Source: Thermoproteota archaeon
Lineage (GTDB): Archaea; Asgardarchaeota; Jordiarchaeia; Jordiarchaeales; Freyrarchaeaceae
Assembly (NCBI GenBank): GCA_029258835.1
Contig: JAPDJY010000057.1
Span: forward strand, 1-31,854
DNA length: 31,854 bases
Direction: 5' to 3'
The translations under genes and the position numbers were made by a program. This document shows, piece by piece, positions 22,689 through 25,017 of the stretch; position 1 is the stretch's first letter, and each line of letters opens with the position of its first letter. The notes under the pieces are model-generated. The model made no database searches. It saw only the letters and a program-made list of their open reading frames with translations, and was not told the DNA's origin.

Positions 22689-22803
22689 GGGTCTGTGGCC
22701 TAGCCAGGATAGGGCGTCGGCCTCCGGAGCCGATAGTCGAGAGCGCTTGTGCGCCGGTAAGGTTCAAAACCGTTGGTTGGGGAAAGTCCCTCCAGACCCG
22801 CCA
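22689..22803 (+). tRNA. tRNA-Arg(CCG) with two non-canonical introns: 51/52 (22742-22760) and 59/60 (22769-22786)
   Basis: Acceptor stem GGGTCTG/CAGACCC, A20, G73, CCA. Anticodon arm TCGGC CT CCG GA GCCGA. Removing both inserts restores GAGGG TTCAAAT CCCTC and a 78-nt mature tRNA. Confidence 0.92.
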
Positions 22804-22856: not shown

Positions 22857-24746
22857 ATGATCTTAAAGGTTAAATCGGAAATAGCGGATGCGCTTTGGTG
22901 CGCCTTAGAGGCCTTAGATTTCGCTTCTGCAACCTCGAAAAGCGAGGTTTCGCAGCTTTCAGAGACGCCTGATCCTAAGTTAGGTGATATTGCCTCCTCG
23001 ATCCCGCTTAAGCTTGCGAAGCCTCTCAGTAGGAAGCCCATGGAGATAGCTGAAAGCATAGTTGCGTGTATAAAGATGCCTCCATTGGTTAGGAGGGTTG
23101 AGGCTGCAGCGCCAGGCTACGTAAACTTTTTCCTAGATGATGAGAGGCTTACAGCTGAGCTGATAAAGCATGTTATGGAGGAAGGGGAAAGCTACGGATC
23201 CTCTGATTTAGGGAGAGGTAGGAAAGTGATAGTGGAGCACACGGCGGTTAATCCGACTAAGCCTCTTCACATAGGACATCTCAGAAACGCCGTTCTAGGC
23301 GATGTTGTGGCGAACCTTTATAGGGCGTGTGGCTGGGACGTTGAGGTTCAAAACTACATTGACGACTTAGGACGCCAGATGGGAGTTTTAGTCTGGGCTT
23401 TTATGAACAACGTACACTTGGATGTTCCAAGGGAGAAGGATATGAAGCTTGACTTCTGGTACGGGCTAGTCTACGCTAAGGCAGCTCAGATATTGAAGGA
23501 TAAGCCTGAACTGGAAGGGGATGTTGACAGGGTAATGAGGGAGATGGCTGCTGGCGAAGGGGAAGCCTCCCTTTTTAGCAGGCAGCTTGCGGAGAAATGT
23601 GTTGAGTCAAACCTAGAAACGACTTCTAGGGTTGGCATCACCTATGACTTGCTGGTCTGGGAGAGCGACGTGGCAAGGGCGCGGCTCTGGGAGAACACCA
23701 TGAAGATCCTTGAAAAGTCAGAACATTTCGTATGGGAGACGGAGGGGGAGTATAAAGGCTGCTTTGTAGCTAAGCTGAGTCATCTTGAAGAATTTAAAGA
23801 CAAGAAGAACCCTGACAAGGTTCTCGTACGTTCGAACATGGTTCCGACCTACGTGGCTCACGATATAGCATACCAGCTCTGGAAGTTCGGCCTTCTAGAA
23901 GTGGACATGAGTTACAGGCCGTGGCATAAGCAGTTTAATGGCAGAGTCCTCTGGACTACGACTCCTATCTTAGGTGTTTCATCAGATAGCTTTGCAAAAG
24001 CGGATAGAGTGATAAACGTTATAGGCTACGAGCAGGAATACCTACAGAAAACCATCAAGGTATGCTTAAAGCTTCTAGGGCACTTGGAGCAAGCGAAGAA
24101 CTCTATCCACTTATCATATAAGCACGTGCAGCTTTTAGGGGAACGCTTCTCGGGCCGGGAGGGGAACTGGGTTGGCTACCATGCAGACGCGGTCATCAAC
24201 CAAACTCTGCTTTGCGCCTACGAGCAAGTTGACAAGAACTTCCCCGGCCTCCCTGAGATCGAGAAAAGACAAATAGCAGAGATTATAGCAGTCGGAGCCG
24301 TAAGATACTGGCTTACAAAATTCAGCACAGAGCAAACTATAATTTTTGACTACGGGAAGGTAGCCAACTTTGACGGTGAAACCGGGCCTTACATCCAGTA
24401 TGCAGCTGTAAGGGCGAAGAGCATACTTGAGAAAGCGGGGGAGACGCCTAAGCCAGACATCAACCCTGCGAAGCTTAAAGGCCAGAGGGAGGTAGAGCTG
24501 ATTAAACACATAGCAAAGTTCCCTGAAGCTGTTAAATCGTCAGCTGAGCAGTTAAAGCCAAACCTCCTTGCGGAATATACCTACCGGCTAGCTAACAAGT
24601 TTAGCAAATTCTATGAAGAATGCCCCGTCCTAACCGCAGAAGACCCTGAAACAAGGGAAGCCCGCCTCGCCCTAGTCCAAGTCACCTTTCAAACGCTAAA
24701 AAACGCATTGAAACTGCTTGGAATAGAAATCCCCCCAAAAATGTAG
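22857..24746 (+). CDS. argS: Arginine--tRNA ligase
   Basis: 'GYVNF', 'EHTAVNPTKPLHIGHLRN', 'FSGREG', 'GETGPYIQYA'; ends 'PPKM'. Confidence 0.97.
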   Translation: MILKVKSEIADALWCALEALDFASATSKSEVSQLSETPDPKLGDIASSIPLKLAKPLSRKPMEIAESIVACIKMPPLVRRVEAAAPGYVNFFLDDERLTAELIKHVMEEGESYGSSDLGRGRKVIVEHTAVNPTKPLHIGHLRNAVLGDVVANLYRACGWDVEVQNYIDDLGRQMGVLVWAFMNNVHLDVPREKDMKLDFWYGLVYAKAAQILKDKPELEGDVDRVMREMAAGEGEASLFSRQLAEKCVESNLETTSRVGITYDLLVWESDVARARLWENTMKILEKSEHFVWETEGEYKGCFVAKLSHLEEFKDKKNPDKVLVRSNMVPTYVAHDIAYQLWKFGLLEVDMSYRPWHKQFNGRVLWTTTPILGVSSDSFAKADRVINVIGYEQEYLQKTIKVCLKLLGHLEQAKNSIHLSYKHVQLLGERFSGREGNWVGYHADAVINQTLLCAYEQVDKNFPGLPEIEKRQIAEIIAVGAVRYWLTKFSTEQTIIFDYGKVANFDGETGPYIQYAAVRAKSILEKAGETPKPDINPAKLKGQREVELIKHIAKFPEAVKSSAEQLKPNLLAEYTYRLANKFSKFYEECPVLTAEDPETREARLALVQVTFQTLKNALKLLGIEIPPKM

Positions 24747-24784
24747 ACTAACACGCAAAAGGACGTTGCAAGCGATGAAATGAA

Positions 24785-24799
24785 AGAAAAGTTTATAGA
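24785..24799 (+). promoter_or_regulatory. BRE/TATA promoter of tRNA-Arg(GCG)
   Basis: Purine-rich AGAAAAG followed by TTTATAGA, about 30 nt upstream of the tRNA. Confidence 0.55.
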
Positions 24800-24824: not shown

Positions 24825-24975
24825 GGGCCCCTCGCCCAGCCAGGATTATTCCTGAAAGGGCGCTAACGGTAAGGTGCGTAAGCCTGCGGAGCTAGTGGTC
24901 GCAAGAGGAGAGGGAGACCCTCCTCTGGCTAAGGGTTCAAATGGGGTTCCAGAATAAATCCCGCGGGGCCCGCCA
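24825..24975 (+). tRNA. tRNA-Arg(GCG) with four non-canonical introns: 20a/21 (24847-24856), 29/30 (24866-24881), 50/51 (24903-24932), 58/59 (24941-24957)
   Basis: Splicing all four gives GGGCCCCTCGCCCAGCCAGGATAGGGCGCTAGCCTGCGGAGCTAGTGGTCGCGGGTTCAAATCCCGCGGGGCCCGCCA, a fully paired 78-nt cloverleaf with A20, G73 and CCA. Confidence 0.9.
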
Positions 24976-25017
24976 TCAACCTTTATTTAAACGGGTGGAA
25001 CTGTCTTCTTCTTTCAG

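Follow-up and report, generated by a model that had tools for sequence, protein, structure and literature searches.

The locus at positions 24,825 to 24,975 of the window, by which we mean the whole 31,854-nt stretch of DNA analyzed here, was read in the original prediction as a tRNA-Arg(GCG) gene split by four introns. Our analysis indicates that it is very probably a functional, apparently the only, Jordarchaeia tRNA-Arg(GCG) gene, whose four introns would be cut by EndA and whose five exons would be joined by RtcB. The neighboring arginyl-tRNA synthetase is 77-78% identical to proteins of the "Candidatus Jordarchaeales archaeon" and "Candidatus Jordarchaeum sp." MAGs, which points to an Asgard archaeon (Jordarchaeia), and not a member of the Thermoproteales, as the host. 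DNA of the locus was found in hydrothermal-vent and marine-sediment metagenomes; among the runs listed as matching 601-base and 211-base queries from the locus, none was of RNA. Misassembly does not explain the stretch: the 401 bases around the locus show zero differences among contigs of four DNA runs from four studies, although the present assembly may itself derive from one of these runs.

Re-reading of the sequence reproduced the predicted anatomy exactly (Table 1): the insert lengths of 10, 16, 30 and 17 nt, which sum to 73 of 151 nt (48% of the gene), their placement in the D-loop, anticodon stem, T-stem and T-loop, the central helices CAGG/CCTG, GCGC/GCGT, GGTC/GGCT and GTTC/GAAT, and the AA^N ends (AA^A, AA^G, AA^G and AA^A, with ^ marking the predicted cut). 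The inserts follow mature nucleotides 22, 31, 52 and 60, in a gene that starts with GGGCCCC and ends with GGGGCCC-G-CCA. In the unspliced context, the outer helices of the four splice sites measure 1-3 bp, with 1 bp only at intron 1, and neither intron 1 nor intron 2 has an inner helix; the 5' cut would fall in a 6-nt loop in the former, a relaxed, bulge-helix-loop-like site, and likewise in a loop, as a relaxed form, in the latter. Where a TATA box had been placed upstream of the gene, a TATA-like sequence was found, some 26-33 nt before tRNA position 1.

Table 1. Features of the tRNA-Arg(GCG) gene and its surroundings, in window coordinates (^, predicted cut)
Feature	Position	Strand	Description
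tRNA-Arg(CCG)	22689-22800	+	just before argS; Rfam tRNA match of only 37 bits
argS (arginyl-tRNA synthetase)	22857-24746	+	ends 78 nt upstream of tRNA-Arg(GCG); Pfam DALR_1, tRNA-synt_1d, Arg_tRNA_synt_N
Putative archaeal promoter	24783-24799	+	purine-rich BRE-like tract (GAAAGAAAAG), then TATA-like TTTATAGA at 24792-24799; read from sequence
tRNA-Arg(GCG) exon 1	24825-24846	+	22 nt; acceptor 5' strand, U8 and C9, D-stem 5' strand, D-loop to ~20a
Intron 1	24847-24856	+	10 nt, TATTCCTGAA; D-loop, ~20a/21; helix CAGG/CCTG; 3' bulge AA^A
Exon 2	24857-24865	+	9 nt; final D-loop base, D-stem 3' strand, position 26, anticodon-stem 27-29
Intron 2	24866-24881	+	16 nt; anticodon stem, 29/30; helix GCGC/GCGT; bulges TA^A, AA^G
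Exon 3	24882-24902	+	21 nt; anticodon-stem 30-31, loop CUGCGGA (anticodon GCG), anticodon-stem 3' strand, variable loop UGGUC, T-stem 49-50
Intron 3	24903-24932	+	30 nt; T-stem, 50/51; full BHB: helix GGUC/GGCU, bulges GC^A and AA^G, 7-bp inner helix
Exon 4	24933-24940	+	8 nt; T-stem 51-53, T-loop 54-58 (GGGUUCAA)
Intron 4	24941-24957	+	17 nt; T-loop, 58/59; helix GUUC/GAAU; bulges AA^A, AA^A; inner helix 3-4 bp
Exon 5	24958-24975	+	18 nt; T-loop 59-60, T-stem 3' strand, acceptor 3' strand, discriminator G, genome-encoded CCA
T-rich tract TTTATTT	24982-24988	+	7 nt past CCA; identified by reading the letters

Excision of the four inserts leaves 78 nt, namely a fully paired 75-nt tRNA-Arg(GCG) and its encoded CCA. 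When this 78-mer was given to ARAGORN, it was called as tRNA-Arg(gcg) with every stem paired and an anticodon loop of C-U-GCG-G-A, in agreement with the fully paired arginine cloverleaf that had been predicted. The product has the stems of a class I cloverleaf (7-bp acceptor, 4-bp D-, 5-bp anticodon and 5-bp T-stem; 21 of 21 pairs), a 7-nt anticodon loop with U33 and a purine at position 37, and all of the conserved tertiary bases (U8, A14, G18-G19, G53, U54-U55-C56, purine 57, A58 and C61).

The further claim that standard scanners would overlook the unspliced four-intron gene was borne out by both of the programs used. ARAGORN missed the gene with and without its intron mode, its sole tRNA call in the window being Arg(CCG) at 22693-22783, and it found no tRNA at the locus when fewer than three of the four inserts were removed. 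The Rfam tRNA model (RF00005), applied at its gathering score and at E ≤ 10, likewise returned nothing at the Arg(GCG) locus, its window matches being 1115-1250 and 22689-22800. The first of these, the top Rfam tRNA match in the window (58 bits), belongs to a tRNA-Tyr(GTA) gene at 1115-1253 on the forward strand, which has one 64-nt intron and an encoded CCA. Across the whole genome, only 12 loci scored above the threshold of the Rfam tRNA model.

Free excision can make nearly any sequence resemble a tRNA, and a dedicated cloverleaf-plus-intron parser was therefore written, which reads the cloverleaf backward from the acceptor 3' strand and permits excision on condition that each cut lies two bases after a 4-bp helix (EndA geometry). 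Anchored on the acceptor pair of the locus, the parser returned three parses, of which the four-intron parse is the only one with zero defects; the other two have three introns and two defects each. For each of the four introns, exactly one of the boundary shifts that yield an identical mature RNA fits the cut rule (one of five in the case of intron 4), against a background in which the helix rule is satisfied at 2.3% of random positions of matching length. A genome-wide scan, in which an encoded CCA was required and up to four introns were allowed, gave 13 zero-defect parses in the real genome versus 0 in the reversed genome, all 13 with GC-rich stems and short introns, while at two or three defects the two genomes gave parses at about the same frequency. 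The fit of the introns to the rule, together with the lack of unpaired stem positions in the orthologs described below, is partly built in, because the parser demands the 4-bp helix and only zero-defect parses were kept. In the unconstrained minimum free energy fold of the precursor (z = -2.96), the acceptor stem forms and intron 3 takes on a BHB-like shape, but the predicted sites of introns 2 and 4 do not form; such a fold neither proves nor disproves the splice sites.

The parser misses genes with relaxed splice sites, as exemplified by the neighboring tRNA-Arg(CCG). By eye, the T-arm of this gene is interrupted twice, by inserts of ~19 and ~18 nt near 51/52 and 58-60, and its D-arm and anticodon stem are uninterrupted; the gene escapes the parser because the second insert departs from the strict requirement for a 4-bp helix followed by two bases.

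The tRNA complement of the genome was then surveyed in a census without the CCA requirement (a minimum of 5 G-C acceptor pairs, with no more than four introns and no more than one defect), in a draft assembly of 91 contigs and 2.7 Mb that is 94.7% complete with 6% contamination. The census yielded a single Arg(GCG) gene, the locus under study. This observation is further strengthened by a BLAST search of the genome with the mature sequences of this gene and its relatives, which gave no Arg(GCG) paralog, and by an anticodon-arm search, which gave no further intact GCG anticodon arm with tRNA-like flanks in the genome. The check for a second Arg(GCG) gene that had been proposed at the outset thus found none by three routes, the census recovering only about half of the expected tRNA isoacceptors cleanly. 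The locus is likely the only Arg(GCG) gene of the genome, although, with an incomplete census and a draft assembly, a second copy with atypical splice sites may exist.

Two candidates for such a second copy were considered and rejected. An ARAGORN call of Arg(gcg) at C28:4490-4615 has a zero-defect parse as a Lys(UUU) gene with two introns, and a BLAST match at C3:120999, obtained with the anticodon arm of a relative, has the sequence CCTGAGGAG, without a GCG loop. The surrounding segment at C3:120990-121025 (GCGCAGGCCTGAGGAGCCCTGC), in a region without a long ORF, is like the Freyarchaeia-family Arg(GCG) anticodon arm at 17 of 18 bases, with GAG replacing GCG. A further ARAGORN call, Arg(acg) at C1:110713, is absent from the parser results.

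In other parts of the genome, the parser recovers numerous further genes interrupted by two or three introns, such as Ala GGC, Glu CTC and TTC, Pro CGG, His GTG and Leu CAG. Of the unique zero-defect genes, one has no intron, five have one, six have two, five have three and one has four, and the unrecovered isoacceptors (about half of the expected set) may be even more fragmented. Two additional four-intron candidates each contain one defect: an Asp(GTC) at C31:3039-3199 (+), with inserts of 24, 18, 30 and 18 nt and an odd D-arm, and a Leu(UAA) at C14:50863-51021 (-), parsed without the expected long variable arm, in which one "intron" is probably mis-assigned.

To place the inserts in a comparative frame, nine Jordarchaeales Arg(GCG) loci were parsed with the same parser, zero-defect parses being kept. 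The sister genus (G001-G003 and L034) has five introns, comprising the same four positions and a canonical intron of 16-17 nt at 37/38. Within the Freyarchaeia family, four of the five orthologs parsed have three introns (D-loop, 29/30 and 53/54), and G005 adds a fourth at 59/60; "Ca. Jordarchaeum madagascariense" (L038) also has its fourth intron at 59/60. A DNA search of the relatives matched G006:C1:1230121-1230210, falling on the published Freyarchaeia Arg(GCG) coordinates 1230066-1230205; G006 is the closed Freyarchaeia genome of Valentin-Alvarado et al. 2024 and shares its order, but not its family, with the present organism. In the two closed genomes of Atabeyarchaeia, the Arg(GCG) gene has the canonical intron only. 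The Atabeyarchaeia gene lacks inserts 1 and 2, and the Freyarchaeia-family orthologs have no insert at the positions of inserts 3 (50/51) and 4 (58/59); because each insert is thus missing from at least one relative with an unbroken gene at the same place, all four are defined as insertions independently of any splicing motif. The uninterrupted Atabeyarchaeia D-arm, GCCT-AGTCAGGATA-GGGC, differs from the spliced D-arm of the present gene by at most two bases, and the spliced D-loop AGCCAGGATA matches its uninterrupted counterpart AGTCAGGATA.

Exons and inserts differ in their degree of conservation. The mature sequence is identical to that of the sister genus at 72 of 75 positions (96%). Of the three differences, two together make a compensatory exchange at 28:42 (U-A versus C-G), a base pair that lies across intron 2; exon 1 differs from the sister-genus orthologs by 0 or 1 nt. 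The inserts, by comparison with the same genus, are 38-83% identical and differ in length. Across the nine orthologs, 6 of the 21 stem pairs are changed on both sides. The splice-site helices covary as well: intron 1 is 13-17 nt long in the orthologs, with the helix CAGG/CCTG, TAGG/CCTG or, by a compensatory change in G003, TAGG/CCTA, and the intron 4 helix stays paired, with GUUC opposite GAAU, GAAC or GGGC. The intron 2 site holds an insert of 16-24 nt in all nine Jordarchaeales orthologs.

The reading of four true introns has to be weighed against one in which there are only three, the 10-nt D-loop insert being left in place so that the mature tRNA has a D-loop enlarged by a small extra hairpin. 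Intron 1 does have the weakest splice-site context of the four, and a conserved, covarying CAGG/CCTG helix is to be expected of a retained structural hairpin too. A preprint on Asgard tRNA inserts (bioRxiv 10.64898/2026.10.13.758758) speaks of "intervening sequences" as removal is not shown there, and describes annotators leaving D-arm inserts in the "mature" tRNA. Yet the insert itself is variable among orthologs (10-17 nt, with 5-9 identical positions per pair) next to D-loop bases that are invariant, and its removal by the EndA rule gives AGCCAGGAUA, one base off the uninterrupted Atabeyarchaeia D-loop. A 20-nt D-loop would, moreover, disturb the contacts of G18-G19 with the T-loop. Taken together, we regard retention of the D-loop insert as improbable. 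A different three-intron solution, in which a single insert of 24-26 nt in the D-arm region accompanies two T-arm introns, is what the parser returns as its two alternative parses; these were rejected, as their two defects apiece fall in the D-arm and the anticodon arm and as they conflict with the ortholog series, where a conserved exon 2 (AGGGCGCYA) separates two inserts that vary. We assign this solution next to no probability.

It could also be asked whether insertions have built up here in a tRNA pseudogene undergoing decay, with the real Arg(GCG) gene lying in an unassembled part of the genome. A draft of 91 contigs at ~95% completeness leaves room for such a gene, and the locus is unrecognized by standard tools. 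A pseudogene is nevertheless difficult to reconcile with 21 of 21 intact stem pairs after excision, with exons 96% identical to those of orthologs that include a compensatory stem change, or with the conservation of a promoter-like motif and of the synteny with argS. No Arg(GCG) gene besides the interrupted one by argS was found in the other Jordarchaeales loci examined, and the published table of the closed Freyarchaeia genome gives the interrupted gene as its sole Arg(GCG) (PMC11291895). Decay is, in our assessment, very improbable, and we retain the reading of a functional gene with four introns.

The distribution of inserts suggests, as the most parsimonious history, two old order-wide introns, two family-specific gains in the T-arm and a late gain at 37/38 in a gene that already had four introns. 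We put this forward tentatively, at slightly less than even confidence. If true, the canonical 37/38 intron would be the youngest in this gene, and the ortholog series would offer a clean system for studying how BHB introns arrive and in which order overlapping splice sites are processed.

The genomic setting of the gene is conserved along with its exons. The gene sits in a 271-nt gap between ORFs, and the cassette tRNA-Arg(CCG)-argS-tRNA-Arg(GCG) is conserved across Jordarchaeales (L034 and L036-L039), the GCG gene lying on the same strand as argS in the present family and convergent to it in the Freyarchaeia family. All of the orthologs have a purine-rich tract and a similar TATA-like motif (TTTAWA; AAAGAAAAGTTTAATA) at a similar upstream distance, and the TTTATTT tract downstream of the present gene is likely an archaeal transcription stop.

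The enzymes that such a gene would call for are encoded in the genome, with two EndA paralogs (190 and 308 aa), each with N-terminal and catalytic domains (PF01974/PF02778), and one RtcB. The 190-aa paralog, in the C1:12233-12481 region, has the ordinary layout, and the 308-aa paralog, at C6:39796-40056 (L032:862-1788), has ~140 extra, unassigned N-terminal residues ahead of the usual domains. Archaeal endonucleases with two distinct kinds of subunit accept relaxed hBH/HBh' sites at non-canonical positions (PMC4090602), and on this basis we infer cutting of the precursor at its four BHB or bulge-helix-loop sites and ligation by RtcB. In the proposed sequence of events, the gene's own BRE/TATA promoter would give rise to a precursor of ~150 nt with four short introns, and at each junction exon bases would form a 4-bp helix with the 3' end of the intron, each strand being followed by a 3-nt bulge (a small loop in the case of intron 1). 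EndA would cut after the second bulge base on both strands, and RtcB would join the exons of 22, 9, 21, 8 and 18 nt into a normal cloverleaf with its encoded CCA. Because bases of the D-stem, variable loop and T-arm take part in several of the splice-site helices, which thereby compete with the cloverleaf, the precursor would have to refold between cuts, and the order of splicing would matter.

Such findings leave the general picture of archaeal tRNA splicing unchanged. They do illustrate the degree of fragmentation that an essential tRNA gene tolerates under selection, nearly half of it being intron and two of its exons measuring only 8 and 9 nt, and how fully multi-intron tRNA genes escape ARAGORN and Rfam; without multi-intron parsing, an annotation of this genome would record tRNA-Arg(GCG) and most of the other tRNAs as missing. 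The comparative value is modest and lies in the orthologs with one, three, four or five introns at one conserved argS cassette, which make up a substrate set for tests of EndA specificity and splicing order.

With respect to known multi-intron tRNAs, the gene is a well-supported fresh example of a class whose members in Jordarchaeia, Freyarchaeia and Atabeyarchaeia are on record with four and five introns per gene. The original prediction took three introns to be the archaeal maximum, a figure that reflects the Thermoproteales literature (genes with up to three introns in the literature examined, including PMC4090602) and has been superseded by four-intron tRNAs in Supplementary Data 4 of Valentin-Alvarado et al. 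2024 (PMC11291895), namely Freyarchaeia Arg(TCT), Ile2(CAT) and Leu(GAG) and the Atabeyarchaeia-2 Trp, by the five-intron orthologs of the sister genus and by genes with up to five inserts in the preprint already mentioned. In the three closed Asgard genomes of Valentin-Alvarado et al. 2024 (PMC11291895), 92-95% of the tRNA genes have introns. The preprint (Goswami, Ghosh and Sinha, bioRxiv 10.64898/2026.10.13.758758) gives 2.2 inserts per tRNA gene and at most five in one for Jordiarchaeaceae, Freyrarchaeaceae and Atabeyarchaeaceae, and reports that D-arm inserts are often missed by tRNAscan-SE, that inserts prefer BHB motifs and that gains are repeated along the tree; the Arg(GCG) locus agrees with every one of these points.

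The resemblance to the Thermoproteales (Thermofilum and Pyrobaculum; Sugahara et al. 2007, 2008, SPLITS/SPLITSX) lies in several BHB or relaxed hBH/HBh' introns per gene, non-canonical positions and more than one EndA subunit gene, although these organisms belong to a different phylum and their genes, in the literature examined, have up to three introns. Closer parallels are provided by the Freyarchaeia and Atabeyarchaeia multi-intron tRNAs (PMC11291895), which come from the same order and have similarly short non-canonical inserts; the published Freyarchaeia table includes inserts of 9-12 nt, and the 10-nt intron was accordingly dropped as a candidate length record. The Freyarchaeia Arg(GCG) gene (PMC11291895) has in common with the present one the D-loop and 29/30 inserts, but it has three introns, the third at 53/54, whereas the gene described here has four, with those of the T-arm at 50/51 and 58/59; the present organism, in addition, belongs to another (Jordarchaeum-like) family and comes from marine hydrothermal sediment. 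The closest counterpart is the Arg(GCG) gene of the sister genus (G001-G003 and the MAG "Candidatus Jordarchaeales archaeon JZ-1_202007_bins_29," L034), a direct ortholog with 72 of 75 mature positions identical, the same place downstream of argS and introns at the same four positions, which differs from the gene studied here in its extra canonical 37/38 intron of 16-17 nt and in having no encoded CCA.
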